Origin: Alistipes sp.
GTDB lineage: Bacteria > Bacteroidota > Bacteroidia > Bacteroidales > Rikenellaceae
DNA: 64,000 nt
Reading direction: 5' to 3'
NCBI GenBank assembly: GCA_045650465.1
Contig: JAZRRF010000024.1
Span: 838 to 64,837 of the forward strand
Shown here one piece after another: positions 2,158 through 46,150 of the stretch. The first letter of the stretch is position 1. Each line of letters opens with the position of its first letter. The notes beneath the pieces are model-generated. The model was given only the letters and a program-made list of their open reading frames with translations, made no database searches and was not told the origin of the DNA. The position numbers and the translations under genes are program-made.

Positions 2158-2194
2158 GCGAACTTTTGCGAACTTTTGCGAACTTTCGCGAACC
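2158..2194 (+). repeat. tandem 10-bp repeat GCGAACTTTT (3 full copies plus a partial one) between att core and int
   Basis: gcgaactttt gcgaactttt gcgaactttc gcgaacc read directly; one helical turn per unit; candidate Int/Xis or regulator binding array. Confidence 0.6.
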
Positions 2195-2215
2195 TTGTTT
2201 GTTCCTTGTTTGCTC
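2194..2215 (+). repeat. tandem CTTGTTTG(T/C)TC x2 (candidate right arm-type site of attP)
   Basis: Same core as the 1932-1953 repeats, same orientation, immediately upstream of the int start codon. Confidence 0.55.
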
Positions 2216-2230
2216 CAAATCACAAACATT

Positions 2231-23580: not shown

Positions 23581-23619
23581 CTTTTCGTTTTCACCTTTCA
23601 CCTTTCAGTTTTCACCTTT
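23581..23619 (-). repeat. heptad-periodic motif array (minus strand: GGTGAAA ACTGAAA GGTGAAA GGTGAAA ACGAAAA)
   Basis: cttttcg ttttcac ctttcac ctttcag ttttcac cttta read directly; overlaps the last four portal codons (KGEN-stop). Confidence 0.55.
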
Positions 23620-28898: not shown

Positions 28899-29663
28899 TT
28901 AATCAAACAATGAATGTATAAATTTTCGCCCTGTTTCTGTCCATACTGTCTGCTGTGATGTATGCACTTTGCCTGTTGCACCTATGTACTCGCGCGTTAT
29001 CGTGCTTGTATATCCTTTGTCTTGGTACTTGGCTTTCAGCAGCCATTGTCCGTTCTGCTTGTACTGTACACCCATTTCGCGCAATTTGCGGTTTAAAGTC
29101 TCTGCGCCCATACCAAACTCTTTTGCTATCTGTGTAACAGTGTATGTGCTTTCACTACTCAACACCCTTTGGAAATATTCTACTTGTGGAGCTTGTAAGG
29201 TTATAATGCGCTCTTGTTCTTGTGTTTTTGCTTCCAAAAGTTGTTTTTCTGCTTTTGCTTGTTCCAATCGTCGGTTCAGTATTTCCATTGCGTGGGCAAT
29301 AGCTGCATCGTCATCGGCCACCGTTGTTACTCCTGTTGTCAATAACTCTTTTATATGGTCATTGCACCAAATGGCAAATGCAGGAGAAAGCCACCGCGCA
29401 AATTCAAGGGCAACATCTTCGTGCATCCATGTGCCTGGGTTGTCGCCACCGCGTGTAACTTGCACTAAATCAGCCAAAGTGCTTTTTCTCACTTTGGCAA
29501 GTTCGTTGAGAAATTCTTCAGTTTGTTTGTTCTGCAACCAATCTATCGGTCGCTTGTTGAAAGTCTTTGCCATTTCTGTAGCATTGACCTTTACGCTGTC
29601 TCCCTTCGCAAAGGAAACAGAGCTACCATTGTAATGGTACGTTTGAATTTGGTTGTTCAGCAT
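28899..29663 (-). CDS. KilA-N / KilAC-type phage antirepressor
   Basis: N-terminus VNATEMAKTFNKRPIDWLQNKQTEEFL ... GTWMHEDVALEFARWLSPAFAIWC (KilA-N). C-terminus LQAPQVEYFQRVLSSESTYTVTQIAKEFGMGAETLNRKLREMGVQYK (KilAC/ANT). Confidence 0.8.
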   Translation of the reverse strand: MLNNQIQTYHYNGSSVSFAKGDSVKVNATEMAKTFNKRPIDWLQNKQTEEFLNELAKVRKSTLADLVQVTRGGDNPGTWMHEDVALEFARWLSPAFAIWCNDHIKELLTTGVTTVADDDAAIAHAMEILNRRLEQAKAEKQLLEAKTQEQERIITLQAPQVEYFQRVLSSESTYTVTQIAKEFGMGAETLNRKLREMGVQYKQNGQWLLKAKYQDKGYTSTITREYIGATGKVHTSQQTVWTETGRKFIHSLFD

Positions 29664-30416: not shown

Positions 30417-33400
30417 TTATTCATAACGCTTCATTATTTCTGTTGCAATATCAGTCAATCTTCTAACCTCACTCATTCTCCATTCGGGATCTTTGTTCTG
30501 CTTTATAAACTTTTTATGTGCCCCTATGGCGTTAATAACCTCCTTAAAACCTTTATCAGCATATACGCCATAATGCTCAACAGCCTTTGCTCTCTCTTCA
30601 GGTGACAACTCCTCGCCATCACGAATCTTTTCATAGTCAGACTTGAATTTATCGTGAAGCACTTTATACTCATACCACCTTTCAAGGTCCTCGAATGTCT
30701 CCAACTTTTCGTAAGTATTAACCTTTGAGTACTTGTGAAGCGCTTTTGTCGCCGCATTCTCCACAGGAGAGCCAAGCAACTCTTCAAGTTTCTCCTTTCT
30801 CAAAGACTTCGCCACATTCGTGCCGTTTCTCTCGTCCATGCCCTCAATCCATTTCTTTTTAAGGATTTCCTTTTCGGTGTCCGAAGACTGGTCATATATT
30901 ACACTTATATCCTCCGGAGAGTATTCCTTTTCGACACGCTCCTTCAAGGTCTCCACAAACTTGTTGGCATACTTGTCAACTCGCTTCTCGTCCTCGCTGC
31001 CAAGTGGGAAGTTTCTTGTCATCTTATACTCGATATACCTGTCTGCAACCTTTTTCACCTTCTCGGCATCAGCACCATATATCTCATCAAGAATAAGCAT
31101 ATCCTGCTGCGACTGCGGAGCCTCCAAAATTCTCAAACCCAGTAACACACCATCGTTAGCCAATTTAACATCGCCATCGCTGACATCAATAAACGCTGCT
31201 GCGAGATCAATCAACCTCTGCGGAGAGATACCGGTATTCATTTCGGTTAAGATTATTCCAAGCTGCAAGATACCGGCTGCCGTGCCGTCTTTTTCGAAGC
31301 TGTCAATTACTTTCTGCAAGTCTCCCTCAAATGGAGCTTCAAGCAATCCTACTGCATATTTACCATCGGTTATATGCTTCTCATAGAGACCCTTTGCAAA
31401 GTTACCAAGCGTAAAGCCCTCGAACATTCCGGTAACGCCCACCTTCTTTGCCATATCATATATCTTCTCCTTTTCTTCCTCGTCATCACCGAACAACAAG
31501 TAGGGCAGTTGTCCCATCAGTACCCACAGATAGTTCATGCCATAACCGAATATCGCCAAGTTGGTAAAATCTTTTGCGTAACTCTTGTAAAACTCCTTTG
31601 TGGCCTGTTTCCCAGCAGTCACTTCATCTACACCCATCTTGATATACTTCTGCTTGGTGGCCTCGCGTATTCTCTCGCCACGCGCAAGCTTCTTGCCTAT
31701 TCCAACCATGCTGCCTACAACTCTTCTCTGGAATGCCATCTGCGAGTTTCGGAACAAGGTTGTTAGCAAAGCTACAAGACCGCCATCCTTCTGCAGGGAA
31801 CTCAAATATGCACCCTGACCACTCTGCTGGGTCTCGTTGTAAGAGATAGCCGCGTCATTCTTCGCGCGTTTATCCGCCTCATACTCCGTCAAGCCTAAAG
31901 ATTTATAAAACCTCAGTCTCGTGTTATACACAGCTCTTGCACCGGATGCAACAACCACAGCGTCAATAAAAGCATTAGGTGTCATACCCACCATTCTTGC
32001 TGCCTTCATTATCCTGCTGTCATAGATTGAATACTCATTCTCTCCAAGTCGCTCATTACCGGCTGTGCGCCCTTTCCAACGCTCCTCAAAGCCGGGAAGG
32101 TTCTTAATTGCCCAGTTCCAAGAAGACCACCAGCCTACAGGAGTCGATGCGGTCCACATCAAGTCAAATACATTCGCGTCTCCTAAGAATGCCGGCAAAC
32201 TCGCAATCTGTTTCAAGGATGTAAATCCACCGTAAGTAATCTTCGCTGCATTTGCTCCACTCATCAGTTTGGCAAGGTAATCCGCCTTTGGCTTGTAGTT
32301 GCCTGTTGCAATTCGGGCAGTATCCACAAAGTCTTTCCAAAGAGTTTCTCCGTCACCGTAGCGCACACTCTTTGTGTTCTGCACACGATTCTTGAAATCT
32401 TTGTCGTTAATAAGAGTGTTGTTATCCCTTATAAACTCCGCGTATGCCGCCCAATGCTCCATATCCACGATATGTTCATTAAGGACATCAAAAGCATTTG
32501 CCATGAGGTCTATCGGGGTAACATTTACCCTACGCTTGATAATTGAACCGGTTATTGTAGATGGAATAGCATCCGAGGTGTTGTTTATATCCTCATTGCC
32601 TTGTCTTGCATCCTTGTTCACCCTCAATGGGAAGTAGTTCTCTACCTCGCTCATAGACGCACCGAACATTCTCTGGTGAACCTCGTTCATTCTTGGCCTC
32701 ATTTGTGGCAAGAACTCAGCTTGGATATAGTCCGCAAACTTCTTGTACTTGGCAGGGAGTTTCTTAACAGCACCCTGCACCTTCTCTTCTGTCAATCCCA
32801 TGTTACGCAATTTCATCTGTCCCTCAGCCTGTTTCTCGGTCATGTAGAGATACATCAACTGGCCTATGGTCAGCTCTCGTTCTACCGTTGCACCACCATT
32901 CCAATACGAAAGTATCACACCGCTTCCCTTTGTCGATTCGCGCGCAATAGTCTTGTAAGTCTTGCCAATTATCTTTTTATCGAATATCTTCTGCGCTGCA
33001 GCTTCAAGGATATTGAAGTCATTCTGTGACTCCTTCCACTCCTTATCTTGTGCCTCGTTGAACGCAGTCATGAAGTGATTAAACAATTCACCTCTTCCGT
33101 CAAGGTGGTCGCGGCCAAAGTATTTCATGTAATTCTCATAAGTACCCAAGCCATTCATCACAGTACGAACTATGGGGTTCTTATAGACAACCATGTCAAC
33201 AGTCTTGCCGGCAGCTCCAGGCTCTTTTCTCTCAGCACTCTTGTCAACACCATTCATATCGCTCTCTGCCATGTCATGGATTCTCTGCACACGCATAGCC
33301 TCTGCCTCGCGGAACGCCCTTGCACGCTGCACACCTTCGTAGATGTCACCGCTCAAAGCATGGAGCACTTTCTGGTATGCGTCAATCTGCTGCGCCCTCA

Positions 33401-36400
33401 ACTGTACAATCTGCGAGTTTATGGTCTTTGCAAACTCATGGTACTCTTTCCAGGTGATTTCTCCCTTCTCAGCCTTTGTACGCTTCCCGGTCAGTTCATT
33501 TTTAATTTTCGTTATATCAGCCTCAGCAGCCTTCACCTCGTTTCTGTAAGTCGCAGCCAACAGCATTGCATCAGCCTCAGCCTGTGCCTCCTTCAGTTGG
33601 TTCTCAAGAGCCGTATTGCTACCATTCTCCTCAAGCTGCTTCTGGATTTCTCCAACTCTCTTGAATGAGTCGTTGTACTTCTCCTCAAAGCCCTCGTCAT
33701 CAAGGTTGATTGCATCTTTGTAAGTATTTAGGATTCTCTTTCCGATGATATCCACACCGCCCTGAACAACAACACCACTTGCGTTGACTCTCTCCGCGCC
33801 GGTCTTCATCTGCTTTTCCATTATCTCCTCAAGCTGGCTTGTGTGCTCATTGGTGATAATCTCAGCAATCTTCACGGCTGCGCCGTTTACCGTTTTCGCA
33901 TGGCCACCGGTAGCCTTTTGCATGAGGTTCAGCAAGCGTATAATCTTATAGCTCGACATGCCGCTCATCGCATTGTTTCTAAGGTACATCTTCACAAGAT
34001 CAGTGAATATCCTTACAGTATTTCGGTCATAAACCTTCTGCGCGTTCATCAACTTTATGACATTCGCAAGGTCACGGCCATACGCTCTGATAGCAGAGAG
34101 GCGCATTTCTACATTCTCCTTCTCCTGCTCTGCATGTTTCAAGAGGCTTTCTGTAATTCGCTCCTGGAGCGTCATTGCCTGTGGGTTTGTCTGCAATCCG
34201 GCAGGCATGCTTTCGCCCGTGATAGCATCCCTCTCCGCAAACAAACTGTCGTGCATCTCCCTCTGCTCCTGTGTCTCAAGGGCAAAGCCCAAGTACCTCA
34301 AAACAGTGATAGGAAACCTCGATGTCACATTATGCAACCTACGTATAGCCTTTGCATTCTCCTTCAAAGCCTTCTTTTTCTGCTCAGGAGTGAGTTCCTT
34401 CTTTGAGAAAAGCGTCCTCTCCTCTTGCACATTCAAAGAATTATCAACCGATTTATCTCCATAAACCATTTCATCTTCATAGAGAACAGATTCGCGGCTC
34501 TCTACATCCACCATGTCAAGCAATTTAATCGTACCACCCGAATACAGTCCTATGTACGCCCCTAAATTCGACTTGGCAGCTGCACTCAGTGCCGGGAAAC
34601 GTCCAAACAGCACAGGCCTGTTTCCACCCATCACTGTTGTGTAATAAACAATCTCCTTAGCAACCTTCTTTGCGCTCGCAGCAGTTATACCAACAAACGG
34701 TGTAAAAACATTACCTACAACTCTATTTTGGTTATTGCAGACCAAAAGGCCAATCTTGTTTCTATCTCCCAAGCGATTAGAAGATATGAATGCCGCAACA
34801 TCGCTATCATTTTTTACCTGAAACAATTCTGCCGGGTTGAAATCCTTGTCGAAAACCTGCTTGTTGAACGTGAATGTCTCAACAGGTACGTCAGCCCCAC
34901 CTTCAGCCTTTGTACTCCTCTCTTCGTTTGTCTCTTTAGCAGTGTCGTATATTCCGAACTTGCCACTTTTTAGGTTTATAATAATACCTTTCTCTACAAT
35001 ATCCCCATAGATTGTTCTAAAACCTTCCAAAGCAGCCACATCTTCATTAGAAGCCCTCAAAGCACCGCTCGGATGATTATGCACCAGATATACCTTATCC
35101 GGTTTGACATTCTCCATGGCCACTGCCACTGCAGAAGCGTTAATTATCGAAGAGGTGTAATGTCCCATGCCCAAGTGCAGTACCACAGGCTTGCCGTCTT
35201 TTACAAGTACTGCAAAAGAGTTCTCAATGCTTTCATCTTCGAGGTTCTTGAAGATATACGCAACATCCTCCAAGGACTCAATCTGTTCCCCGGCTGTAAA
35301 ATCAAAAGCTTTGCTTTTTGTAAATACTCGTTGTACGAGAGACGTCTCACCCTCTTCGAGTGGACGTAGCGGTGCGTTTATTAGAGTAAGGGCATCTCCT
35401 CCTGCAAGACCATCCCGTTGTATATCACCTGTTCTGGTCCTGTTGTCAGCGGTTTGATTTCCTCCACTGGCACCCCGTTGTATGTCGGTAGTTGTTCGCT
35501 CATCAGTATCGAATAATTCAAGTTGTTCATATCTAACAATCCTGCCATCGCCTGTCGTATGCAAAGTTATATTTTTATTTTCAAAATTCCTATCATTACG
35601 ATTACCTCTTCTGAACATCGTCTGCCCCTCCATCACACTCTCCTTCATTTCCGGAGTAACATCAACAGAGTGCATCACATTGTTCTGCTCAAGAGAAGGC
35701 ATTTCAACAGTGCCGACCTTTGCACCCCACTTCTTGGTGTACTTCTGCACGAACGATGGCAGCATCTTGTCATAGAAACCCTTCATACCCTCGCCACCAA
35801 TACGCAAGCCATCACCGCTGATGGTGTCTCCCTCTTGCATTTCAAGCATTTTATTTGCAAGCGGTTTTCCTACAATATCTGCAATAGATTTTCCGATATA
35901 CTCATCTTTGGAATTGACAACTATTCCGTTCGGGTCAACTATAAATTTGTAGTCAAGCCCCATAGAGAAGCTCTTGTTTCCGTTCTTTCCAACCTTTTCG
36001 CATTCTATATGGCTAACAACTTTGGCTATATTATACCTCTCCGCCTGCTGTTCACCCGTAGTCCAAGCCACCTTGTCAAATCCCTCCTCGGCAGCAAGTC
36101 GCAGCATACGCTTCATCGCAAGCTCATACCAGTTCTTCTCAAAGGGAGCAGAGGGGATACCTCTCTCTTGTCCTCGCAGTTCTTGCAATCGTTTTTCAGC
36201 CTCATTGCGTGCCTGTCCCAACGCATCCATTGTGATTCTTTCCTCTTCGGATAGCATAGCGTCAAAGTTCTTTAGGCGTTCAAACATCGAGCCCCCAAGT
36301 TCCTTGAAGTTATACTTTTCTTTCAAAGGCTCTCGGTATGCAGTCAATTCCCTATTGGTTTTACGAACCTCTTCTTCAGCAGCAAGTACTTCTTTGGCCA

Positions 36401-39400
36401 AACCAACACCACGATATCCCTTCTCTCGGCCATCCTGGTGTCTCTTGGACTGAATCTCATCAATCACAAGCACACGATTACCCTCGCTGTCGGTAGTCTC
36501 ACCAAAGCGCACCCAAGCAACAGCACGGCCTTCGCCTGCATCACCAAAGTGAATCTCATCGCTTTGGTTGTACGGCTCAATGGTAGGCACCACAAGAGCA
36601 ATCTCACGTTTGCGTTCAAGACCTTCTGTTGTATAACTCTCTCGATGCTCATTGATAGCGTTGTCCGCAGGGTTTGCATCAACAATCTTATTATCCAATA
36701 TGAAATCCTCATATTCGCCTTCGCTTACCGTTGACTCACTCCATAGAACCTCGCCATTGTAATACTCAAAGAAATCCTCAATGCCGGGGTACTTCTCTTG
36801 CATAGCATCCCAACCAATCTCCTTTGTTTCAGCCTCAAGTTTCTTTGAAGCTTCATTCATCATACCACTGCCGAACTGAGAGTATCTCACCTCCTCAATC
36901 TTGATAGTATTCTCATTAACGAAGTCAAGCACTTCCTGTTTGGTAAGCGATTTGCTCTCGTTGTTCTCCAGCCATTCACTGAGGCCCATCCACGCCTCCT
37001 CACCGGCCTTCAAACCGCCGTTCTTCTTCAGCATAGCAAGCCACTGCTCGGGAGTAGCCTTCTCCTGCTTTATACCCTCAACAGCCCTCTGCGCATTGCT
37101 AACAAAAACTTCCTGATTGTAGTTGGCCTTGCGGAACATCGTGCTACCCAAGTCTGTACCTTCCGGCAAATCCGTTTCAACAGGAGGGTAAGTATAATCG
37201 CCGCCCACATCCTTTGTGTGCAGCTTTGCATCAGCATCAATGACACTTATGTTTCCAGCCGCGTCGCGCACAACATTTCCCTTCTGCAAATCAGCGATAA
37301 CAATCTCGCCATCAGCAAAAGCCGTGTTCGCATCATTCAGCGGCTCAAATCCAAGAGACTGCATATACTCCCTGCGCTCCTCACTTGTCAGCGGAGTACT
37401 CTCGGCAAAATCCACAATAGGCTGCTGGAGAATCCTCACGAACTCACCATCAATCTCACCATAACCCAAAATCTCATATCTTGTGTCACGGAATACATCG
37501 TTAAACAAAGCAATGTTGTCAATGTCAGGGCGGAAACGCTTGCCGAAAGGCTTGCCCTTAGATGCCTTTATAACATAACGGCCGTCTTTAGAAGAATAGA
37601 CCTTTGAGTCCTTACCCTCACCAATAGGCTCGGTATCATCAGTAAACTCCTTGAGGTCAGTATGCCAGTTACCGGTGGCTATAGCCCACCCTTTGAGGAG
37701 TTCTTTCTTTCTCTCCTCAATCTCTCTTCTTCCTGCTTCACTAAAGCGTTCATTCGCTGGGACTGCGCTCTCAGATATTCGGCTGAAAAGCGCATCGACA
37801 GCGTTCGCTCTCGCTCCTTGACGCAGCGCTCGTTCCATTCTCTGTGGAAGTCGTTGCGATATTCTCCGTCCGAAAGGGTTAGCAGGTGTAGCATCTTCAA
37901 TGAATTTATCTATCTGCGACAAAGTTACATCATTAAAATCACCTTTCAAAACAGAAGAGTATATTTCTTTCGCAAGTTCCTTTCTTTCAGCCTCTCTCTT
38001 CAGGCGTTGCTTCTTTGCATACTCTTTGTTTCCATATATGATACCGCCAACTTCATCAAGAACATTGTTTATGCGGTTCTTCTCCTGGCGTCTCTCCGAC
38101 ATCTTCTTGCTCGCCATTGTCTCACCCTGGCCGGTAACCTGTGAAACCTTTCCGTTTTCAGTTTTCACATTTCCGTTTTTCCGTAGGTTCGCATAGCTTG
38201 CCCTGATGACCGCCTCAACATCCCTCTGCTTCAAGTTCTTGAAACCAGCCTTGCGCAGCACATTCATCACATAGTCAATGAACCTCTGCCATACACTCTT
38301 CTCAAGCTCGTTCAAGTCCATCTTCTCTGCGATGTGTGCCACATACTCATCAGCCGCCTGTCGCATCTTCGCCTTTGACGGATTCGCCATGTCGGCTCCA
38401 ACATACTGTAAGAAGTGCGCTCTCAACGCTGCAGGCATCATATCCCAAACACCATCGAGGAACTTGTCAAAATCCTCTTGGCCCAATAAATGCTTGATAC
38501 CATAGTGTGACACAGCCTCATGCAGGATAGTGCTCTCCACATCGCGCATACTCTCCATATTCGGCATATACAGCGCAATCTCACCTGTGACAGGATTATA
38601 CCAACCCTTTACCTCACCACCCTCGGCAATAGCCTTCATCGCATCTTTATTCGTTACCGTTGACTCATCATTGTGCACAGTAACCTCAACGCCCAACTTC
38701 TCGGCAACCCCCTTCGCATGGTCAGCAAAACGCGCTTGTTGCTTCTTCTTTGCCGTTTCAAGAACCTTATCCGCAACCGGATGAGACGCTTTTGCCTTAC
38801 CATCCACATAAACCTGTGTGCCTATCGCATTTCCCTGCTTGTCATAACGGGTGACTGATGCCGCCTTGCCGCCTCCGTCATACTCCGTATGCTCAAACAG
38901 CACACCCTCGTCGTATGAATCAACCGACACAACCTTACCGTCGTGCTCAGTGACAACCGTTGCCACCTCACCACGCGAATTGTAGTTCGTGATACGCTTG
39001 TCGCCATTCTCAAGCACCTCCTCGGTAAATGTAGGCTCCTTAATCTCAGCCACACCGCTTTGGCCGGGAGCGTTTCCACCCTCGGCCATCACTGGTGTAA
39101 ACCAACCATCAACCTTGCTTTCAAGCGAAGTGCCCTTTACAATAGCCCTCAGTTCCTCAAGTTCATTGGGGTACAATCCACGCTCCTTGGCTTTGTAGAA
39201 TAACTCATACGCTGGGGAGATTTTGCCATATTCCTCGCGGTTACTCTTGCGCACAGCCTCCATATCCTTCAGCATCTGCGTACTATTACCCGCGCTGTTG
39301 AGTGTATAGTGGTCTACAACTTGGTCACTTGCTTGTGATATAGTTGAACCGTTCGGAATTTCCGAACCGCTTACTTGTTGATTTCCTTGTGACGTTGCAT

Positions 39401-42400
39401 TCTCGCCACCGCTGTACACATCACCTTGAACCTTGCCTCCTTGTCCTGGCTCTCCAAGGTTTGTATCTCCTGTGTTGTCAGCAAATTGTTCGCCTTGCAG
39501 TAGTTCACTGCTTCCGCGAGTACTCTCGCTTTCTCTTGTGGTGTCATTTTCGTAATTTTCCGCTAAGTTATTAAAATATTCTGTTTCATCAAAACCTTTA
39601 AGCTCTTGCATTATACGAGGCACTATCGACTCTTCGTATGCAATCTGCTCTTCGATAGACTCAAAGTTAAGCGCATTAGCAACGCCTCTCAACTCCGCAA
39701 GCTGTTGCTCAACATCAGTCTGCTGTCGCATCTCAAGGCCCTTCTTTGCAAATGAACGAGGATTACCGTTAGAGAGAACATCAATAATCATATCCCTCAC
39801 ATCCTGCATATCCCCATTAAATCCAAGGCCACGCAGCTCATCACCATAGCTCTCATAAATGATTTCAGCAGCACGTTCAATGCTCACGCCACCCTTCTCC
39901 TTGCCGGCAATAACACCAACCATCTGCTTCTGTTCAGCCTTCGTACCAGTCTCTTTTTGGAAACTTTCCGGAGTAATCTTAATTCCACCCAACTGATTTG
40001 CAACAAACTCATCGGGAGTCATTTCAATCACCTCCCTCGGTTTTACAGCCTCAACAGACTCACGCATCTCGCTTTGTGAAATCTCCGCGTCGCGTTTAGC
40101 CACCTCGTTCCAATAGTCAACCTTCGCCTGTGCCGCCTTCTTGCCAGCCTCCCACTTATTCATGGCAGCCTCGTATGCATCAGGGTCAGTACCTACATTC
40201 GGTTCCTTATCAAACTTCGTCAGCGCACTCTCCGCCTGCTTGCGGTTATTCTCAATCATCTGCGCACGCGCTTGGCTATTAGGCACGCGCTGCACAAAAT
40301 ACTCAAGAGTCTTTTCCGCCGGCATTTCAGTAAACAACACCTTGCCACCCTTGTCGGTAGGCACCGCAGTCGTAAAATTAGTTTCAGCCAGCAACACAAC
40401 ACGTTTGCCATCAACATCAACAGTCACACTGCCATCCTCATTGCGGGAAACAACAGCATAGTTCTTGCCATCCATACGGAAGAAATCAGGCACCTCTGCC
40501 ACCTTGGGCGCAACCACCTGTGGCTGTGCGGTCTCTGTCTGTGCAGTTTCATTAGACAACCCATTAGACAACCCGGGTTGTTCAATAGGCTGTGTAGTTT
40601 CAACAGGTGACACAACGTCACCACTTGTAGCGCCTTCCGCTTTGACCTCTCCGCCTTCAACTACAGGCTGCTTTCCTGTAGCATCAGCCATGATGGCCTC
40701 GAATTCTTTTGCAGGCACCTCTGTAGGCCTGCCGTCAATAAGAGCGTCCACCATATCACCGCGTCGGCCTACAAGCATTACAGTGTGGTCGCCTTCCGAG
40801 TCACTATACACAAATGTATTAAGTTGGCTTTTGTAGCGAGCATCAATCTCCGCACGCTTTACAGCCTTCTGTGCCTCAGCATTCTCAACAGCCACTTTCT
40901 CGCGGATGTTACCGGCTTGTATCGCCTCCTTCTTGCTGTTAGGCATAAGAGCTACCAAACCCTCACTCTGATTAACATCAATATAGCCATCGTTATCAAG
41001 CACTACCGTGCCACCGGTAATGTAAATAACCTCACCGGTGCTTGGCAAAGTAGTCATATACACATTGCCATCCTCGTGCGCTACAGCATCAACACTATTG
41101 TCCGCCTCAATGATCTCACTTTCTCGCTCTGCGTTGAGCCTTTCACTCATACCATCATACCTTGCCTTCTCTTCCAAGTAAGTATACAACGCATCCGCAA
41201 CAGCTTCATCACCCATGGCAACCTCATCAACACTTCTGCCACCGACGAAATCCTCAATGCTCGCATCATTCTGCAATCCAAGTGCAACCCTTACCGCTGT
41301 CTCCGCATCATCCAAAGACTTGTTGGCAAGAGCAATCGTGCTTCCGTTCACAGTATCAGGATCGGTGTTGTAACCCTCCTCGTAACGACCATTAAGCATT
41401 TCATTGAGCATTTTCTGTCGCTCGTCTGTGATAGCCTCACTTACTCCTATCGCAGTCTTATACTGCAAAGAATACACGGCATACTGCAATGCGACCTTTT
41501 TCTGTTCATTGGTCAGTGTTTCATCGGCATATACATCTTTAATTGCCTGGTCAATCTCACTTAATGTCTCTTCTGTGTTCTCTATTGAGCCATTATCGAG
41601 GCGCGACTTGATTTCATCCCATTGGGCTATGTTCTCACCCCACAATGTACGAGCTGTGCGGTCTGCGCTCTGCATCTTCCATTTCTCCTGAGCACCCAGT
41701 TTGAACGAACCATCATAAGCACCTACGGCTGTTCTCAATGATGATGTGATAGCACCCGGAACAGCCACAGCAATAAGCGTAGTAGTCAAATCCTTCTCGT
41801 TGAAGAAATCTTTAAGTTTAGGGTCTCTAAGCAACGCCGGAGATAACAAGCCCACATGTACCTCTTCCATAAACTCCTCTATAGGTCCATGCCAACCTGT
41901 TCTCTCAAAGAAATTACCCAGGGTTTTACCAAATCTGCTATTAGCAAGATTATCTATCCACCCCAATACTTTTGTTCCCTTTCCCCATTTGCGTAGCTGA
42001 CGGAATGGAAGAGACGCATAACCTGCACCGATCATTTCCGATGCAGTGTCCAGCATCCTCTCCGTAAATTCTTCGTACACGGCTGTCGCAGCTCCTTTCT
42101 CATTCTTTTGCCCACCATATACCAATTTGCCATCCTCATCAGTGTCTACGACAACATCACCCTGCATGCGTTCCTGTACACCTGCTATCGTGCCGGGCAG
42201 CTGCATGGTTGCAGCTGTGCCATATCCAGCAGCAACAGAGCCGGCTATATTTCCTAACACCTGCGTGCCCTTTTTCAAAACATTTGAACGGAAACGCTTC
42301 TCAGCCCATTTAAGGAGCTTCTTGCCGGCAGCCTTACCCGTACCGCGAAGTGGGTTTATTGCCATCTCAAACATAAGAGGTATGCTCTCCATGAAAGATT

Positions 42401-43823
42401 TACCGGCACCGGCCGATGCCGATAGGTCCTCTGCATACATTTCATTATACGCAGTAAGCATAACCACCGACTCCAGGAACTTCTGCTCTGCCTGTGTAAG
42501 AGAGCCTTCGCCCTCATCATTTATCTTGTCAAGCACACCTTGCAACGCTTGACCTCTCTTAATTTCTTCGGCACTCGTCCATGTGTCAGGGTCAAGGATT
42601 GCCGCGCCCATACCGGCAACAAACTGTTTGCCGCCTCCGCCTTCCGCTTGAGCCAACGCCTGTAGATTCTTCGCCTTCGCAATATTCTGCCTGGTGTAGT
42701 TAATCATGTCAAGCTGGCGCGCGACTTCCTGCGCCTCCTCGGTTGGAATACCGTTAATAGACATTGCATCTCTTACCGCATCAGCACTGGTCATGCCTCG
42801 TTGATCTGTGGTCGACAAAGCCATCGCTATATCCCATCCCGCAGGTTTCTCCTTCTCCCAATTAGCCTGCGCTTCACCGGCCTTAGCCTTAATCTCTGCC
42901 TCAATAGAGTCCAAGCCCTCTTCCAGTTCAGCCATCTGTTTGTCGGCCATGTATTTCATCGTGGTATCATCGTCGGCCACACCGGCTTCTATCTGTGCCG
43001 GGGTATATCCGCGTTTTCCTGCTATGGCGCGTTTATCCACAACAGCATCCATAGTCAACTCATTAGCTTTGAGATTTCCGCCTGTGGCCCAACGGAAGAG
43101 CAAGTCATAATCGCCATTTACTCTACGATCGGTAGCTGCTAAGAAATCATCCTCAATCTCGTTGATAGACTTTCCAAACATGCGCTCCAAGGTCTTTACC
43201 TTTGAAGCATCATCAAGTTCGCTAAAATCTGTTCTAACAGCCTCAATAGTTTCGACCTTTTGCTCAGCCTCAACTTTCTGTTGCTTCTTCGACTGCTGCT
43301 TCTGATGTTTGGCATTCCAACCATATTCATGATTAGGGGTTGCATTCTTCTTGACGTCCGGAGTGACACCGACTTTAACTCTAACCTGTTGTGCTACTTC
43401 ATCCACCTGCTCTGGTGTAAGAGGATTGATTATAGCCCCGGAATCATCTTCCTCCTCCTCGTTACCATCGCCCTTTAGAGCTTCCCACTTCTGCCGCACA
43501 CGACTTTTCTTCTGTTCTTCTACAGCTTCCTCTTTTAATCCCAACTCTCCCCCGGTAAGGGTAAAACCATTCTCGCCACCCTTGGGTTGCTGCGCAGGAA
43601 CCGGTGCGGTCGTCTTCTGCTCCACATTGGGAACAAGCATTGCTGCAAACTCTTCGTAACTATCACCAATATCCGTGTAGCCACTATTTCTCATTGCGTC
43701 ATAAGCTACACGCACATTCTCCGGTTTTTCCAACAACTTGTTGAACTCCTCCTGGTTCTCACCAATATCTGTGTACCCCTCATTTTTAAGGGCGTTGTAC
43801 AATATCGTTCTATTGTCGTTCAT
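30417..43823 (-). CDS. giant multidomain (polyvalent-type) virion/ejection protein, about 4470 aa
   Basis: Uninterrupted 13.4-kb ORF; ATG at 43823 (TTG at 43832 in the ORF track). Contains HExxH, kinase-like and RadC/JAB motifs (see domain features). Confidence 0.9.
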   Translation of the reverse strand: MNDNRTILYNALKNEGYTDIGENQEEFNKLLEKPENVRVAYDAMRNSGYTDIGDSYEEFAAMLVPNVEQKTTAPVPAQQPKGGENGFTLTGGELGLKEEAVEEQKKSRVRQKWEALKGDGNEEEEDDSGAIINPLTPEQVDEVAQQVRVKVGVTPDVKKNATPNHEYGWNAKHQKQQSKKQQKVEAEQKVETIEAVRTDFSELDDASKVKTLERMFGKSINEIEDDFLAATDRRVNGDYDLLFRWATGGNLKANELTMDAVVDKRAIAGKRGYTPAQIEAGVADDDTTMKYMADKQMAELEEGLDSIEAEIKAKAGEAQANWEKEKPAGWDIAMALSTTDQRGMTSADAVRDAMSINGIPTEEAQEVARQLDMINYTRQNIAKAKNLQALAQAEGGGGKQFVAGMGAAILDPDTWTSAEEIKRGQALQGVLDKINDEGEGSLTQAEQKFLESVVMLTAYNEMYAEDLSASAGAGKSFMESIPLMFEMAINPLRGTGKAAGKKLLKWAEKRFRSNVLKKGTQVLGNIAGSVAAGYGTAATMQLPGTIAGVQERMQGDVVVDTDEDGKLVYGGQKNEKGAATAVYEEFTERMLDTASEMIGAGYASLPFRQLRKWGKGTKVLGWIDNLANSRFGKTLGNFFERTGWHGPIEEFMEEVHVGLLSPALLRDPKLKDFFNEKDLTTTLIAVAVPGAITSSLRTAVGAYDGSFKLGAQEKWKMQSADRTARTLWGENIAQWDEIKSRLDNGSIENTEETLSEIDQAIKDVYADETLTNEQKKVALQYAVYSLQYKTAIGVSEAITDERQKMLNEMLNGRYEEGYNTDPDTVNGSTIALANKSLDDAETAVRVALGLQNDASIEDFVGGRSVDEVAMGDEAVADALYTYLEEKARYDGMSERLNAERESEIIEADNSVDAVAHEDGNVYMTTLPSTGEVIYITGGTVVLDNDGYIDVNQSEGLVALMPNSKKEAIQAGNIREKVAVENAEAQKAVKRAEIDARYKSQLNTFVYSDSEGDHTVMLVGRRGDMVDALIDGRPTEVPAKEFEAIMADATGKQPVVEGGEVKAEGATSGDVVSPVETTQPIEQPGLSNGLSNETAQTETAQPQVVAPKVAEVPDFFRMDGKNYAVVSRNEDGSVTVDVDGKRVVLLAETNFTTAVPTDKGGKVLFTEMPAEKTLEYFVQRVPNSQARAQMIENNRKQAESALTKFDKEPNVGTDPDAYEAAMNKWEAGKKAAQAKVDYWNEVAKRDAEISQSEMRESVEAVKPREVIEMTPDEFVANQLGGIKITPESFQKETGTKAEQKQMVGVIAGKEKGGVSIERAAEIIYESYGDELRGLGFNGDMQDVRDMIIDVLSNGNPRSFAKKGLEMRQQTDVEQQLAELRGVANALNFESIEEQIAYEESIVPRIMQELKGFDETEYFNNLAENYENDTTRESESTRGSSELLQGEQFADNTGDTNLGEPGQGGKVQGDVYSGGENATSQGNQQVSGSEIPNGSTISQASDQVVDHYTLNSAGNSTQMLKDMEAVRKSNREEYGKISPAYELFYKAKERGLYPNELEELRAIVKGTSLESKVDGWFTPVMAEGGNAPGQSGVAEIKEPTFTEEVLENGDKRITNYNSRGEVATVVTEHDGKVVSVDSYDEGVLFEHTEYDGGGKAASVTRYDKQGNAIGTQVYVDGKAKASHPVADKVLETAKKKQQARFADHAKGVAEKLGVEVTVHNDESTVTNKDAMKAIAEGGEVKGWYNPVTGEIALYMPNMESMRDVESTILHEAVSHYGIKHLLGQEDFDKFLDGVWDMMPAALRAHFLQYVGADMANPSKAKMRQAADEYVAHIAEKMDLNELEKSVWQRFIDYVMNVLRKAGFKNLKQRDVEAVIRASYANLRKNGNVKTENGKVSQVTGQGETMASKKMSERRQEKNRINNVLDEVGGIIYGNKEYAKKQRLKREAERKELAKEIYSSVLKGDFNDVTLSQIDKFIEDATPANPFGRRISQRLPQRMERALRQGARANAVDALFSRISESAVPANERFSEAGRREIEERKKELLKGWAIATGNWHTDLKEFTDDTEPIGEGKDSKVYSSKDGRYVIKASKGKPFGKRFRPDIDNIALFNDVFRDTRYEILGYGEIDGEFVRILQQPIVDFAESTPLTSEERREYMQSLGFEPLNDANTAFADGEIVIADLQKGNVVRDAAGNISVIDADAKLHTKDVGGDYTYPPVETDLPEGTDLGSTMFRKANYNQEVFVSNAQRAVEGIKQEKATPEQWLAMLKKNGGLKAGEEAWMGLSEWLENNESKSLTKQEVLDFVNENTIKIEEVRYSQFGSGMMNEASKKLEAETKEIGWDAMQEKYPGIEDFFEYYNGEVLWSESTVSEGEYEDFILDNKIVDANPADNAINEHRESYTTEGLERKREIALVVPTIEPYNQSDEIHFGDAGEGRAVAWVRFGETTDSEGNRVLVIDEIQSKRHQDGREKGYRGVGLAKEVLAAEEEVRKTNRELTAYREPLKEKYNFKELGGSMFERLKNFDAMLSEEERITMDALGQARNEAEKRLQELRGQERGIPSAPFEKNWYELAMKRMLRLAAEEGFDKVAWTTGEQQAERYNIAKVVSHIECEKVGKNGNKSFSMGLDYKFIVDPNGIVVNSKDEYIGKSIADIVGKPLANKMLEMQEGDTISGDGLRIGGEGMKGFYDKMLPSFVQKYTKKWGAKVGTVEMPSLEQNNVMHSVDVTPEMKESVMEGQTMFRRGNRNDRNFENKNITLHTTGDGRIVRYEQLELFDTDERTTTDIQRGASGGNQTADNRTRTGDIQRDGLAGGDALTLINAPLRPLEEGETSLVQRVFTKSKAFDFTAGEQIESLEDVAYIFKNLEDESIENSFAVLVKDGKPVVLHLGMGHYTSSIINASAVAVAMENVKPDKVYLVHNHPSGALRASNEDVAALEGFRTIYGDIVEKGIIINLKSGKFGIYDTAKETNEERSTKAEGGADVPVETFTFNKQVFDKDFNPAELFQVKNDSDVAAFISSNRLGDRNKIGLLVCNNQNRVVGNVFTPFVGITAASAKKVAKEIVYYTTVMGGNRPVLFGRFPALSAAAKSNLGAYIGLYSGGTIKLLDMVDVESRESVLYEDEMVYGDKSVDNSLNVQEERTLFSKKELTPEQKKKALKENAKAIRRLHNVTSRFPITVLRYLGFALETQEQREMHDSLFAERDAITGESMPAGLQTNPQAMTLQERITESLLKHAEQEKENVEMRLSAIRAYGRDLANVIKLMNAQKVYDRNTVRIFTDLVKMYLRNNAMSGMSSYKIIRLLNLMQKATGGHAKTVNGAAVKIAEIITNEHTSQLEEIMEKQMKTGAERVNASGVVVQGGVDIIGKRILNTYKDAINLDDEGFEEKYNDSFKRVGEIQKQLEENGSNTALENQLKEAQAEADAMLLAATYRNEVKAAEADITKIKNELTGKRTKAEKGEITWKEYHEFAKTINSQIVQLRAQQIDAYQKVLHALSGDIYEGVQRARAFREAEAMRVQRIHDMAESDMNGVDKSAERKEPGAAGKTVDMVVYKNPIVRTVMNGLGTYENYMKYFGRDHLDGRGELFNHFMTAFNEAQDKEWKESQNDFNILEAAAQKIFDKKIIGKTYKTIARESTKGSGVILSYWNGGATVERELTIGQLMYLYMTEKQAEGQMKLRNMGLTEEKVQGAVKKLPAKYKKFADYIQAEFLPQMRPRMNEVHQRMFGASMSEVENYFPLRVNKDARQGNEDINNTSDAIPSTITGSIIKRRVNVTPIDLMANAFDVLNEHIVDMEHWAAYAEFIRDNNTLINDKDFKNRVQNTKSVRYGDGETLWKDFVDTARIATGNYKPKADYLAKLMSGANAAKITYGGFTSLKQIASLPAFLGDANVFDLMWTASTPVGWWSSWNWAIKNLPGFEERWKGRTAGNERLGENEYSIYDSRIMKAARMVGMTPNAFIDAVVVASGARAVYNTRLRFYKSLGLTEYEADKRAKNDAAISYNETQQSGQGAYLSSLQKDGGLVALLTTLFRNSQMAFQRRVVGSMVGIGKKLARGERIREATKQKYIKMGVDEVTAGKQATKEFYKSYAKDFTNLAIFGYGMNYLWVLMGQLPYLLFGDDEEEKEKIYDMAKKVGVTGMFEGFTLGNFAKGLYEKHITDGKYAVGLLEAPFEGDLQKVIDSFEKDGTAAGILQLGIILTEMNTGISPQRLIDLAAAFIDVSDGDVKLANDGVLLGLRILEAPQSQQDMLILDEIYGADAEKVKKVADRYIEYKMTRNFPLGSEDEKRVDKYANKFVETLKERVEKEYSPEDISVIYDQSSDTEKEILKKKWIEGMDERNGTNVAKSLRKEKLEELLGSPVENAATKALHKYSKVNTYEKLETFEDLERWYEYKVLHDKFKSDYEKIRDGEELSPEERAKAVEHYGVYADKGFKEVINAIGAHKKFIKQNKDPEWRMSEVRRLTDIATEIMKRYE
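34955..35240 (-). other. domain of giant ORF: RadC-like JAB/JAMM module
   Basis: SFAVLVKDGKPVVLHLGMGHYTSSIINASAVAVAMENVKPDKVYLVHNHPSGALRASNEDVAALEGF; the HNHPSG is encoded at 35064-35081. Confidence 0.7.
37225..37660 (-). other. domain of giant ORF: small protein-kinase-like module (polyvalent-protein kinase type)
   Basis: GEGKDSKVYSSKDGRYVIKASKG (Gly-rich loop plus Lys), IADLQKGNV (D..K.N catalytic-loop-like), VIDADAK (DFG-like). Confidence 0.5.
38141..38187 (-). repeat. intragenic copy of the heptad motif array
   Basis: Shares the exact 16-mer ttcacatttccgtttt with the intergenic array at 13868-13883; encodes NGNVKTENGKVSQ. Confidence 0.5.
38330..38780 (-). other. domain of giant ORF: zincin-like metallopeptidase (polyvalent-protein MPTase type)
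   Basis: KGWYNPVTGEIALYMPN...STILHEAVSHYGIKHLLG; the HExxH is encoded at 38505-38522. Confidence 0.6.
38810..39018 (-). other. domain of giant ORF: YD/RHS-like repeats
   Basis: ITNYNSRGEVATVVTEHDGKVVSVDSYDEGVLFEHTEYDGGGKAASVTRYDKQGNAIG. Confidence 0.4.
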
Positions 43824-43844
43824 TGCTTGCAATTTTCGTTAGAC

Positions 43845-45551
43845 CTATTTAAACCCTGCTTTTTTTCCGCTGTTAAACCCTGCTGTTTTCCCCTTATTGA
43901 CACTCGGCGGTGTGGCAGTCATGCCACCTCTCTCAAGCGCTCCACGCATCTGATTAACAGACGGGTTAGAGACTGCTTTATATCCATTTACTAAGTCAGG
44001 CTCCATCACTGCCAAGTTTTGATTCGCTTTAACCATCCGCCAATACGCTTCAATAACCGCCTTGTCGTCATTATAATCAAACGCCATACCATTGATGTAG
44101 CGTATCTTTTTTTCCTTGTTGCCCGAACCGCTTCCGCCACCCTGATTCTTTAATCGCTCCTCTCTTGCTCCTTGAATACCCAACAGAGCATTATGATAAC
44201 TCACCTCCTCCTTGAGTCGCGCATTACGGTAGTCCTCGTCAGCCTCCCACTTTGCCTGCGCCACTTCTGCGTCATATTTAGCCTTCGCAGCAGCATTCCG
44301 CTCCTTGCGGTCCGCATCAGCAGCCTCCATGCGCTGCCTTGCATATTCCGCCAACAGCTTCGAGTTGCTTTCCCTTAATGCACGCAGCTTCTCATTAGCC
44401 ACCGCACTACGCGCCTCCTCCTTGTCAATCTTCCACGCACCACCATGCATGGCAGCACCCTTAGTCACAAGGTTAGCAATATCACTTAGTATAGCCATAT
44501 CACGTTCACGCTTAGCCCTTCGCTCCTGCTCTGCGGCAGACTTCTGCGCCTGGGCAATCTGTGCATCCGTCTGCTCTACATAATTACCCTTTTCCATCTC
44601 CGGAAGATCCGGCCATAGAATCGTCTTTTTCCCACCATCCTCAACAGCTGTCTGTGCAGCAGGAGCAGGTGTAGGTGTAGATGTCTCTTTTGCCGGTGTC
44701 ACAGGTGCTTTGGGCTGTGCAGCCGGCGTTTCCTTTTTCACAGCAGGTGTCTGCGGTATTTGTGGCTCGGTCTCTTTACGTTTTTTACCGTCTTCTATCA
44801 GTTTACGCAACTCCTCCGCACTCCAGTTTTCCCTTCCTACTGCATGAGAATAAAAATAAGGATGCATCTCTTTATCTTCATTCATCTCACGTATATGGTA
44901 ACGTTTCAGCCGCGACGGCGATTTTGCAGCTTCAATATCAGCGATAGCCTTGTCATATCGCGACTGTTCAGCTGGAGTTTCCGGCAGAGTTTCAAGAACA
45001 GATCTATGATAATAGTTATCGAGTTTGCTTACACCCGCATTTCGAGCACTCTCGTTAGGAATTCGAGTGCCCCTGATATCAAATGGGCTCACATTTTTTG
45101 GAAATGTAGTTTCTGACTCCTTTTTCTGCGATCTATTTCCCCATATATCCACCTCCTCAAGAACAACTACATCGTCTGACGCTTGTGTGTCAGGTGCAGC
45201 AGGCGTTTCCTCCTTTTGGGAGGCAGCCGGTGTCACAGGTGCTTTGGGCTGTGCAGTATCAAAAGTTCGTCCGGCTTTTTTTGCTATAGGGTTATCAACA
45301 ACTTCATACCACTTCCCACCTATACTGGCATAGTAATTTCCTTTGTTGTCTGCTTCTGTGCCCCGGTTCAACGCTCCTATAATATCACCATCAGAATTTC
45401 TAAATATAGGATATCCAGCAGCCCTCGCAGCTGCGTGGTTATTGGGAATTTCATCGAAGTTTACTTTCTTATAGCGTTTCCCATTCTGCTCAATATATTC
45501 CTCACCTGCCTTGGTCTTCTTGTGATTCTTGTCATCTAATACACTGCTCAT
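43845..45551 (-). CDS. virion/ejection protein, paralog of ORF 26719-28377
   Basis: 568 aa; central roughly 170 aa are near-identical in blocks to the 552-aa protein, with high nucleotide identity (44428-44675 vs 27371-27620). Confidence 0.65.
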   Translation of the reverse strand: MSSVLDDKNHKKTKAGEEYIEQNGKRYKKVNFDEIPNNHAAARAAGYPIFRNSDGDIIGALNRGTEADNKGNYYASIGGKWYEVVDNPIAKKAGRTFDTAQPKAPVTPAASQKEETPAAPDTQASDDVVVLEEVDIWGNRSQKKESETTFPKNVSPFDIRGTRIPNESARNAGVSKLDNYYHRSVLETLPETPAEQSRYDKAIADIEAAKSPSRLKRYHIREMNEDKEMHPYFYSHAVGRENWSAEELRKLIEDGKKRKETEPQIPQTPAVKKETPAAQPKAPVTPAKETSTPTPAPAAQTAVEDGGKKTILWPDLPEMEKGNYVEQTDAQIAQAQKSAAEQERRAKRERDMAILSDIANLVTKGAAMHGGAWKIDKEEARSAVANEKLRALRESNSKLLAEYARQRMEAADADRKERNAAAKAKYDAEVAQAKWEADEDYRNARLKEEVSYHNALLGIQGAREERLKNQGGGSGSGNKEKKIRYINGMAFDYNDDKAVIEAYWRMVKANQNLAVMEPDLVNGYKAVSNPSVNQMRGALERGGMTATPPSVNKGKTAGFNSGKKAGFK

Positions 45552-45565: not shown

Positions 45566-46150
45566 CTATTTACCATTCTTGTTTCTCGGAACTTTAATAC
45601 CCAGCTCGCCAGCCTCAGCCGCAGAATCTTCCACGCCGCCGTCAGCCTTGTCCCAATCTACGCCCTGCAATCCACTCGCAATAAGGCTCGCACCACTACT
45701 CATAAGATTACTTGCCGCCTGCTGCCTTGCCTCAGCAATAGCCGCCTGCTGCTGACTCAAGTTATTATCCATCGCAAGCTTCTGCGCATCGATAGCCGCT
45801 CTATCCTGCTGCCCCTTTGCCGCCAAGTTACCGACCATGTTGCCCATTGCCTCACCACCGGCCTCAGCAACCGCTGCAGCCTGTTCGGGTGTTCCACCGG
45901 TTATAGCCTGTCGCGCTCTCGCCTCCTTTGTTCTCTCCGCCCAAGCATTCCTGTACTGCTTCAACGCATTCTGCGCCTGCACAGTGTTCAGGTAATCCTG
46001 GTAGTAATTACGGTTATACCACGCCTCATTGGCAGCCCTCTGCCGAGCCAACCCTTGTTCTTGTTTCTCCGCCTCCGACGCGCTCTTGTACGCCCCGTAC
46101 AGCGTACTCGCAAGCCCCACGCCTGCACCTATAAGTCCAACTACACTCAT
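45566..46150 (-). CDS. small internal-virion-like protein with N-terminal hydrophobic segment
   Basis: 194 aa; MSVVGLIGAGVGLASTLYGAY, then an A/Q/E-rich helical sequence; first gene of the operon. Confidence 0.6.
   Translation of the reverse strand: MSVVGLIGAGVGLASTLYGAYKSASEAEKQEQGLARQRAANEAWYNRNYYQDYLNTVQAQNALKQYRNAWAERTKEARARQAITGGTPEQAAAVAEAGGEAMGNMVGNLAAKGQQDRAAIDAQKLAMDNNLSQQQAAIAEARQQAASNLMSSGASLIASGLQGVDWDKADGGVEDSAAEAGELGIKVPRNKNGK

Follow-up and report, generated by a model that had tools for sequence, protein, structure and literature searches.

We examined a giant open reading frame (ORF) in a 64,000-nucleotide stretch of DNA from Alistipes sp. (contig JAZRRF010000024.1 of assembly GCA_045650465.1), which we refer to as the window. 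A preliminary description of the window, made from the sequence alone, had reported an uninterrupted minus-strand ORF of about 4,470 codons, and its coordinates hold exactly (Table 1). The probable start is the first ATG, at 43823, which lies 21 nucleotides (nt) past the stop of the upstream gene; translation from there yields a protein of 4,468 amino acids (aa), with a mass of 498 kDa and a pI of 5.1. We refer to this protein as the giant and number its residues from this ATG. We think it quite likely that the giant, at ~498 kDa, is a polyvalent virion protein of a temperate, podovirus-like phage of Bacteroidales.

Table 1. Features of the giant ORF and of other genes in the window
Feature	Position (nt)	Strand	Residues of the giant	Evidence or remark
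Integrase	2144..3424			
GtrB-like glycosyltransferase	10137-10985			
TerL	17728..19815	plus		
P22-type portal	23605..25584	minus		PHROG 156 E 5e-64; Pfam P22_portal E 7e-40
Ant/Rha-like regulator	28899..29663			
Giant ORF	30417..43832	minus		4471 codons from TTG; stop codon 30417-30419; no internal stop
Conserved, mostly alpha-helical C-terminal module (C-module)	30420..33827	minus	3333-4468, core 3333-4320	Homologs and AlphaFold
Possible degenerate second RadC-like copy	34449..34871	minus	~2985-3125	No metal ligands; weak
RadC-type JAB domain (PF04002)	35031..35276	minus	2850-2931	Complete HxH-x7-SxxD metal motif (HNHPSGALRASNED)
Large unnamed conserved domain (block)	35589..37145	minus	2227-2745	Cluster search and AlphaFold
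Kinase-PolyVal (PF18762)	37218..37715	minus	2037-2202	Pfam E 2e-38, 132 bits (cutoff 27)
Predicted zincin-like metallopeptidase domain, HExxxH type	38139..38726	minus	~1700-1895	Homolog alignments
YDxxG-type hairpin repeats	38799..38966	minus	~1620-1675	By eye; descriptive label
Conserved N-terminal chassis region	40524..42716	minus	~370-1100	Contains LPD14 and the hydrophobic segment
LPD14 (PF18827)	41727-41951	minus	625-699	Pfam E 5e-10
Tandem ~30-aa motif LYxxLxxxGYxDIGxxxEF, two copies	43626..43802	minus	8-66	Read from sequence
568-aa protein	43845..45551	minus		Directly upstream of the giant; middle of small / medium / giant cassette
194-aa Ala/Gln-rich protein with Gly-rich hydrophobic N-terminus	45566..46150	minus		Borderline T7_gp14
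Collagen-repeat tail-fibre-like gene	56882-57997			Far from the main structural block

The ORF is real: chance could not keep a frame free of stops for so long. It could nevertheless be an artefact that fuses several genes (an assembly chimera) or a decaying pseudogene, and in a few relatives (L010, L036, and L068) the region is split into two or three ORFs. However, the closest homolog, P0029, is an independent protein of 4,028 aa that is collinear with the giant from its first residue to its last, except for a swapped cassette region: it matches residues 1-1109 with 2,066 bits and residues 2227-4468 with 4,009 bits (local phmmer). We found P0029 by comparing the unnamed block in Table 1 to 1.84 billion representative proteins. 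The remaining segments of the giant were matched by independent fragments and by other relatives. Because nearly every part of the ORF has protein homologs elsewhere, it is coding throughout, and its catalytic motifs are intact.

The conservation of the frame in related loci also speaks against an artefact. A search with the C-module, with one genome per species, gave 76 loci whose record titles are mostly Bacteroidales; these include Muribaculaceae, Prevotella, Bacteroides, and Porphyromonadaceae, as well as the cultured strains Duncaniella muris DSM 103720 and Prevotellamassilia timonensis. Where at least 9 kb of upstream sequence was available, the frame stayed open across the entire fetched flank, or at least 4,000 codons, in 40 of 50 loci, and 5 further loci have complete ORFs of 2,500-4,325 codons. 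(A megablast search of the giant ORF against phage genomes gave no match.) Given the collinearity of P0029, the homologs of the other segments, and the open frames across related loci, an assembly chimera is very unlikely; more generally, the idea of a chimera or pseudogene is strongly disfavoured, and we give it almost no weight. The same comparison corrects the view that the giant is unusually large. Its own family includes representatives of up to 7,483 aa, and frames in this family typically run to 4,000 codons or more, so the size of the giant is ordinary there.

To identify domains, we ran Pfam on the whole giant and on ten overlapping pieces of 600 aa. This gave three matches: Kinase-PolyVal, LPD14, and RadC. 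Weak matches to DUF6576, BACK, DUF7326, DUF1850, and Helicase_IV_N were each under their own cutoff, and we consider them to be noise. PHROGs and NCBIfam added nothing for the giant beyond RadC. All of the motif strings that were quoted in the preliminary description (GYTDIG, RYDKQGNAIG, HEAVSH, and those of the kinase, RadC, and the block) are present where it placed them.

First, the kinase-like core that had been proposed from these strings is borne out by a near-complete match to Kinase-PolyVal, which spans positions 2-159 of the 160 positions in the profile. Reading the sequence, we found the expected motifs intact: the Gly-loop GEGKDSKVY (residue 2068), the VIK lysine, IADLQKGNV (residue 2176) with the catalytic loop DLQKGN, and VIDADAK (residue 2194) with IDAD. 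The domain is about 166 aa here, and the next domain begins at residue 2227. As judged from these motifs, the cassette is a Kinase-PolyVal domain without a C-lobe, with predicted ATP-binding and phosphotransfer residues. Kinase-PolyVal has been reported mainly from polyvalent proteins of phages and prophages of Bacteroidetes and Verrucomicrobia.

Second, the proposed RadC-type JAB domain scored above the Pfam cutoff of 22.1 bits, both in a 600-aa piece (31.3 bits) and in the whole protein (24.4 bits). Its HNHPSG lies at residues 2915-2920 (35064-35081), within the intact metal motif, and the segment aligns with a structure of RadC (PDB 2qlc; E 0.004). The NCBIfam model for RadC gave E 2e-5 and 24 bits, which is far under the cutoff of 180 for the full-length equivalog, as expected for a bare domain. 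A degenerate second copy had also been suggested. The corresponding segment does accompany the first copy in 14-19 relatives, but its similarity to the first copy is weak (BLAST E 2.1; hhalign P 0.018 over 19 N-terminal columns) and it lacks the metal motif.

Third, the giant had been described as having an HExxH zincin site. The proposal was right in kind and in position (HEAVSH, residues 1768-1773, 38505-38522), but the pattern is HExxxH, and it has no supporting profile; a regular-expression scan found no occurrences of HExxH in the 4,468 residues. HExxxH is found in 84 of 86 homologous segments, and HExxH in none of them. In alignments of 7 and 19 sequences (A1 and A5), the H, E, H, and G of HExxxHxG are invariant, and so are a Glu and an Ala about 57 residues downstream, in AADEYVAHIAE (AADEYIAxLAE in the family). 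By tblastn, the region is shared with the giants of Bacteroides phages BS-TP4, BKO1-TP3, and BF1-TP2, and also with a human-gut phage contig, a Dolichospermum phage, and Vibrio phage giants that are annotated as methylases. Word-indexed searches with this region retrieved just a pair of near-identical fragments, whether the query was the single sequence or the 7-sequence profile, and a scan of IMG/VR found nothing.

Iyer and colleagues described an HEXXXH clade of metallopeptidases in polyvalent proteins (PMC5512222). Residues ~1700-1895 of the giant appear to fit this clade as it was described: the HEXXXH and the downstream Glu are conserved. We rejected a canonical HExxH zincin, or membership in MPTase-PolyVal (PF18818), because the motif is absent and there was no profile match. 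We predict that this region is a zincin-like metallopeptidase, which we consider probable.

The N-terminus contains a duplicated motif, as the preliminary description had noted, with GYTDIG at residues 16-21 and again at 48-53. The same tandem motif, in the same position and with the same spacing, is found in five other giants of 4157-7483 aa; it could be a signal for packaging or targeting. The region around residues 370-1100 is common to BS-TP4 gp3, BKO1-TP3 gp55, and about 25 of 150 representative giants. It includes the one clear hydrophobic segment in the 4,468 residues, near residue 683, as identified by hydropathy. Closer to the zincin-like domain, "YD-like repeats" had been reported. 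Five or six YDxxG-type units are visible by eye, including RYDKQGNAIG at residues 1659-1668, but no Pfam repeat model, YD/RHS included, matches the giant at E ≤ 1.

The block between the kinase and RadC, which the preliminary description had pointed out as conserved-looking, is a real domain of about 520 aa. It includes VIDEIQSKRHQDGREKG at residue 2453, WYELAMKRM at 2565, and GEGMKGFYDKMLP at 2677. At E ≤ 1e-3 the block matches 10,649 representative clusters, of which 3,148 remain at E ≤ 1e-30. Nearly all of the best 150 matches lie within proteins of 2,000-7,500 aa, often in two copies. No Pfam model matches the block, and a search of the PDB with its profile (A2) found no sequence relative. 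Its invariant motifs (HFGDAG.GRA.AW.R.G; DE.QS.RHQ..R..GY; PF.K.W.EL..KRMLR.AAE; AWT.G.QQ.ERY; and GM..FYD) include dozens of polar residues. Because so many polar residues are invariant, we predict that the block is probably an enzyme.

An AlphaFold model of the block, built from 13 sequences, had a pLDDT of 77 and a pTM of 0.60. In the model, an N-terminal helical subdomain is followed by an alpha/beta core and by a C-terminal subdomain with GGEGMKGFYD. The GNAT fold has the topology b1-a1-a2-b2-b3-b4-a3-b5-a4-b6, with a pyrophosphate-binding loop after b4. The order of elements in the core of the block is b-a-a-b-b-b-a[helical insert]-a-b-a-b, which matches this fold; the insert is about 80 residues. 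When we compared the model to known structures with Foldseek, GNATs (SSAT, Eis2, and the GNAT domain of ICL2) were the top matches in the PDB, and GNATs were also the top matches in BFVD after the true homologs. These scores are weak (E 0.015-0.1 and TM ≤ 0.3), with no support from sequence profiles. A GNAT-like core is thus possible on the basis of the model, and we regard it as a lead rather than as a finding.

The block also occurs in phages of other hosts. It is present in gp34 of the T7-like Pelagibacter phage HTVC028P, which is encoded between the genes for "internal protein A" and an "internal virion protein," and in a 12-kb ORF of Microcystis and Nostoc phages. In BFVD, it was found in proteins from uncultured phages that carry annotations for LT_GEWL, LPD, or ART-PolyVal domains. 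Running Pfam on the internal-protein genes of HTVC028P and on the giant of the Microcystis phage gave nothing useful. In the Dolichospermum phage Dfl-JY45 (L006, 2322-9485), a protein of 2,387 aa combines two copies of the block with four ART-PolyVal domains. Therefore, the block pairs with ADP-ribosyltransferases well outside of the phages of Bacteroidales.

The preliminary description saw no motif in the last ~1,200 residues or so. That is true of the domain libraries, but this region contains the most conserved module of the giant family: the C-module has 12 homologs with E from 1e-60 to 1e-133. It includes a hydrophobic helix and then an acidic run (LWVLMGQLPYLLFGDDEEE). In one locus (L009), the C-module is a separate gene of 972 aa that shares 4 nt with the gene upstream and is directly followed by a P22-type portal and an SU10-like capsid gene; in another (L010), it comes after an ORF that exceeds 3,200 aa. 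A homolog of the portal begins within 600 nt downstream of the C-module in 42 of 68 loci. Comparison of the C-module profile (A3) to the PDB gave no meaningful match (across all of the profiles that we compared to the PDB, only designed helical repeats and 3e11 came up), and we consider the Foldseek matches of the C-module (SMC, cohesin, and transporters) to be noise.

We also considered whether the C-module might be a divergent form of LPD38, but we detected no homology. Around residues 4097-4117 (~31473-31535), and also in the C-terminus of BS-TP4 gp3, a hydrophobic helix leads straight into an acidic GDD(D/E) run, and the two lie about equally far from the C-terminal end. The hhalign comparison for this helix-acidic likeness to the LPD38 type was insignificant (probability 0.4%), and the likeness between the two C-terminal types may reflect convergence or chance.

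Comparing the giant to its relatives separates a conserved chassis, comprising the tandem motif, the region at 370-1100 with LPD14, and the C-module, from the variable enzyme cargo that lies between. According to Pfam, 11 relatives with the C-module contain ART-PolyVal (6 of them), MuF_C (4), LPD14 (3), Kinase-PolyVal (2), LPD3 (2), and RadC (2), as well as single occurrences of ddrB-ParB, PBECR3, PBECR5, LPD23, a nucleotidyltransferase, and a methyltransferase. In P0029, MuF_C lies exactly in the slot that the kinase occupies in the giant (residues ~1896-2226, 37146-38138). This is a swap of cassettes, MuF_C for Kinase-PolyVal, at a fixed slot.

Short motifs of the form T-M/L-F/A-R/S-K/R occur at residues 1902, 2228, 2735, and 3137 (38106-38120, 37128-37142, 35607-35621, and 34401-34415). 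They coincide exactly with the borders that separate the zincin-like domain from the kinase cassette, the kinase cassette from the block, the block from the RadC pair, and the RadC pair from the C-module. They may be processing sites for a peptidase or simply modular linkers. In the relatives, it is the conserved tail of the block that accounts for most of the [ML]F[RS] sites. A more speculative proposal, which we hold only tentatively, combines these observations: the block would be a hitherto unnamed GNAT-like family of acyl- or other group-transferases with a long helical insert, perhaps among the commonest cargo of ejection proteins, and the giant would dismantle itself, with the HExxxH peptidase cutting the linkers to free the cassettes.

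The polyvalent proteins of phages and conjugative elements were described by Iyer, Burroughs, Anand, de Souza, and Aravind in 2017 (PMC5512222), and the preliminary description had assigned the giant to this class. The assignment stands, given its signature domains, its late virion context, and the classic cargo of its relatives. As in those proteins, disparate enzymatic domains are joined in one chain (Kinase-PolyVal, LPD14, RadC, and a putative HEXXXH-type MPTase); the gene lies beside late virion genes (TerL, portal, capsid protein, a possible T7_gp14-like gene, and endolysin); and the host range agrees with that reported for the kinase (prophages of Bacteroidetes). The giant differs in that it lacks MuF, ArdC-N, and the methylase-helicase dyad, and neither its 520-aa block nor its ~1,100-aa C-module matches any Pfam model for an LPD in the library used. 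Overall, the giant is typical of a class that is already known.

Around 40% of polyvalent proteins are reported from conjugative elements, so the giant might belong to such an element instead of a phage. However, the window encodes TerL, a portal, a capsid protein, an endolysin, a tail-fibre-like protein, and an integrase, and we found no relaxase or type IV secretion genes among the ORFs scanned. We consider a conjugative element to be extremely improbable. Besides the genes in Table 1, the window encodes an endolysin, an SU10-like major capsid protein (MCP), and a replication initiator. The integrase, the Ant-like regulator, and the virion genes together imply a temperate phage. No tape-measure or sheath gene was found among the scanned ORFs, which fits the earlier label of "podovirus-like," and the view of a temperate podovirus-like genome is upheld. 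The phage belongs to a large family of prophages, mainly from Bacteroidales.

Cultured Bacteroides phages offer the closest comparisons: BS-TP4 gp3 (5391 aa), BKO1-TP3 gp55 (5553 aa, annotated as "DarB-like antirestriction"), and BF1-TP2 gp68 (3633 aa). The paper that reported these phages (PMC12694917; Gut Microbes 2025) does not discuss their giants. Like the window phage, they have genomes of ~64-68 kb with an integrase, a P22-type portal, and a cassette of small, medium, and giant genes, and their giants share the N-terminal region and the HExxxH domain at 22-34% identity. In contrast, the giants of BS-TP4, BF1-TP2, and the Vibrio phage have C-termini of the LPD38 type, which are not homologous to the C-module. 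The cargo of the Bacteroides phage giants also differs, with InPase, ART-PolyVal, PBECR5, ddrB-ParB, an Sbno-type helicase, and weak methylase-type matches. In particular, the Sbno-type helicase of BS-TP4 gp3 is accompanied by the weak methylase-type matches, and the Vibrio phage giant has a helicase (ResIII/Helicase_C) and a weak methylase match.

Two proteins are encoded just upstream of the giant. The 568-aa protein gave no match to any family, PDB entry, or phage genome; by position, its analogues are JC1 gp68 (510 aa), HTVC028P gp35 (565 aa), and BKO1-TP3 gp56. Homologs of the smaller, 194-aa protein occupy the same slot in BKO1-TP3 (where the order is gp57, gp56, the giant gp55, and the portal), in BF1-TP2 (gp70), and in the related locus L055. 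Members of this small-protein family (such as L087:1571-2050, L001:7360-7908, and L055:325-1077) have a Gly-rich hydrophobic N-terminus, a conserved WYxRxY, and Ala/Gln-rich helices. The profile for the family (A7) gave no meaningful match in the PDB. The 194-aa protein alone in this family reaches the cutoff of T7_gp14, a match that is no more than suggestive of a gp14-like protein.

Huge proteins in the heads of podoviruses are known to be threaded into the cell, as with the internal core of T7 (gp14, gp15, and gp16) and the virion RNA polymerase of N4 (gp50); gp16 carries a transglycosylase and gp50 an RNA polymerase. The giant resembles these systems in the ordered small, medium, and large genes and in having enzymes borne on a putative ejection protein. 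It differs in that it has no similarity to gp15 or gp16, and has neither a transglycosylase nor an RNA polymerase domain; the link to gp14 is through the 194-aa protein, and only at the level of the cutoff.

Proteomic precedents come from other temperate podoviruses. Mass spectrometry of CsCl-purified virions of phage JC1 identified gp67 (196 aa), gp68 (510 aa), and gp69, which has 4515 aa and accounts for 22% of the genome (PMC9144972). These "DarB-like" giants of the Bcep22-like phages (JC1 gp69 and Bcep22 gp75) resemble ours in belonging to temperate podoviruses, in taking up ~22% of the genome, and in following two smaller upstream genes. JC1 gp69 differs in that it has no detectable sequence similarity to the giant, contains helicase-type regions and LPD38, and is from a phage of Burkholderia. 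In the Stx phage phi24B, gp47 (2811 aa; LPD5, LPD1, LPD38, and MuF-C) is abundant in virions yet invisible by cryo-EM, and was proposed to be an encapsidated ejection protein (bioRxiv 10.64898/2026.04.10.717836). It too belongs to the polyvalent proteins and comes from a temperate phage with a short tail, but it is smaller, with another set of domains, and no homology to the giant was shown.

By analogy to these phages, it is plausible that the giant doubles as the ejection protein, as the preliminary description proposed. Reasoning from the gene order and from these mass-spectrometry precedents, we suggest the following sequence of events. The giant would be made late, along with the virion genes, and the chassis would take it into the capsid together with the two proteins encoded just upstream, in line with the small, medium, and giant order of T7 (gp14-gp15-gp16) and JC1 (gp67-gp68-gp69). 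It would then be threaded through the short tail, before or with the DNA, and the helical and hydrophobic parts of the chassis might aid in crossing the envelope. The cargo enzymes would work during the first minutes of infection: the kinase would target host proteins, and RadC and the unnamed putative enzyme would target nucleic acids or other substrates. The predicted metallopeptidase may cleave the giant at the T-M/L-F/A-R/S-K/R linkers between the cassettes.

Several results weigh against this interpretation. First, three genes at 25592-29663 separate the giant from the portal (the Ant/Rha-like regulator and proteins of 560 aa and 366 aa that match no family), which is unlike most relatives. 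Since the portal follows within 600 nt in 42 of 68 related loci, this gap looks like an insertion that is specific to this phage. Second, the match of the 194-aa protein to T7_gp14 (PF24072; E 5e-6) scores 27.0 bits, exactly at the cutoff, and this protein is compositionally biased. The match was not repeated for the upstream ORFs of five related loci or when we compared the family to T7 gp14 with hhalign. As both the homologs and T7 gp14 itself were negative, the assignment is suggestive only. Third, neither the giant nor the 568-aa protein matched T7 gp15 or gp16, the ejection proteins of P22, or any solved structure, by Pfam, PDB, or Foldseek searches, although the test of the fold is weak given a low-confidence model. 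Fourth, because the C-module is not homologous to C-termini of the LPD38 type, the mass-spectrometry precedents from JC1 and phi24B apply by analogy only.

The remaining difficulties concern parts of the giant. AlphaFold modeled the C-module as almost entirely helical, but with low confidence (pLDDT 59.8). No Pfam model, MPTase-PolyVal included, matched the zincin-like residues 1700-1895 at E ≤ 1, and the best match to profiles A1 and A5 in the PDB was 3e11, at E 0.34. Finally, the four linker motifs compare with 0.06 expected, but the pattern was chosen post hoc.

Alternatively, the giant might be cargo only: it would be packaged and injected as a multi-effector protein, for anti-defence or host takeover, and take no part in the conduit, which would be left to other virion proteins, such as the 194-aa and 568-aa products. 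The giant has no similarity to known conduit-forming ejection proteins and, apart from the segment near residue 683, no clear hydrophobic segment. Also, P1 DarB and T4 Alt, which are precedents cited by Iyer et al. (PMC5512222), are cargo and not conduit. On the other hand, the giant fills the third and largest slot of the cassette, as do T7 gp16 and JC1 gp69, and the C-module is far more conserved than any of the cargo and stays beside the portal even where a gene of its own encodes it. Such conservation and linkage fit a protein of structure or ejection better than an effector. We therefore view cargo alone as possible but as distinctly the less probable account.

P1 DarB also bears on the annotation of these proteins. 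Like our proposal for the giant, DarB is a large capsid-packaged protein, which shields the incoming DNA, and its name is used in the annotation of relatives of the giant. DarB is defined by its pair of an N6-adenine methyltransferase and a superfamily-2 helicase, and the giant has no Pfam match to either. Because the methylase-helicase pair is absent, we do not transfer the "DarB-like" label to the giant.

A quite different role would lie in the cytoplasm: expressed by the prophage or at a late stage of infection, the giant would be a multi-enzyme protein that might act in superinfection exclusion or in defence against other elements. Indeed, Iyer et al. (PMC5512222) noted that polyvalent proteins captured by the host could be turned on incoming elements. 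But the gene for the giant has the same orientation as the virion genes and is tightly spaced with them (21 nt from the upstream gene), the linkage to the portal holds across the family, and analogous giants are present in purified virions. We consider a non-virion role to be improbable, and we prefer a polyvalent virion protein.

The concept of the polyvalent protein, as set out by Iyer et al. in 2017 (PMC5512222) and backed by virion proteomics of Bcep22/JC1 and phi24B, is unchanged by these results. What the giant offers is a clean domain map, with a conserved chassis and swappable enzyme cassettes. Giants of this kind use about one-fifth of the coding capacity of abundant temperate phages of gut Bacteroidales, and they are annotated as "hypothetical" or mislabelled as "DarB-like." Two large pieces of the giant lack any family model: the ~520-aa block, which is probably enzymatic and is found in more than 10,000 clusters, and the ~1,100-aa helical module that is linked to the portal. 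These are the obvious targets for learning how phages with short tails package and eject proteins of half a megadalton, and how such proteins affect the Bacteroides cells that they enter.

Elsewhere in the window, the GtrB-like glycosyltransferase raises the possibility that the prophage converts the O-antigen or capsule of its host.

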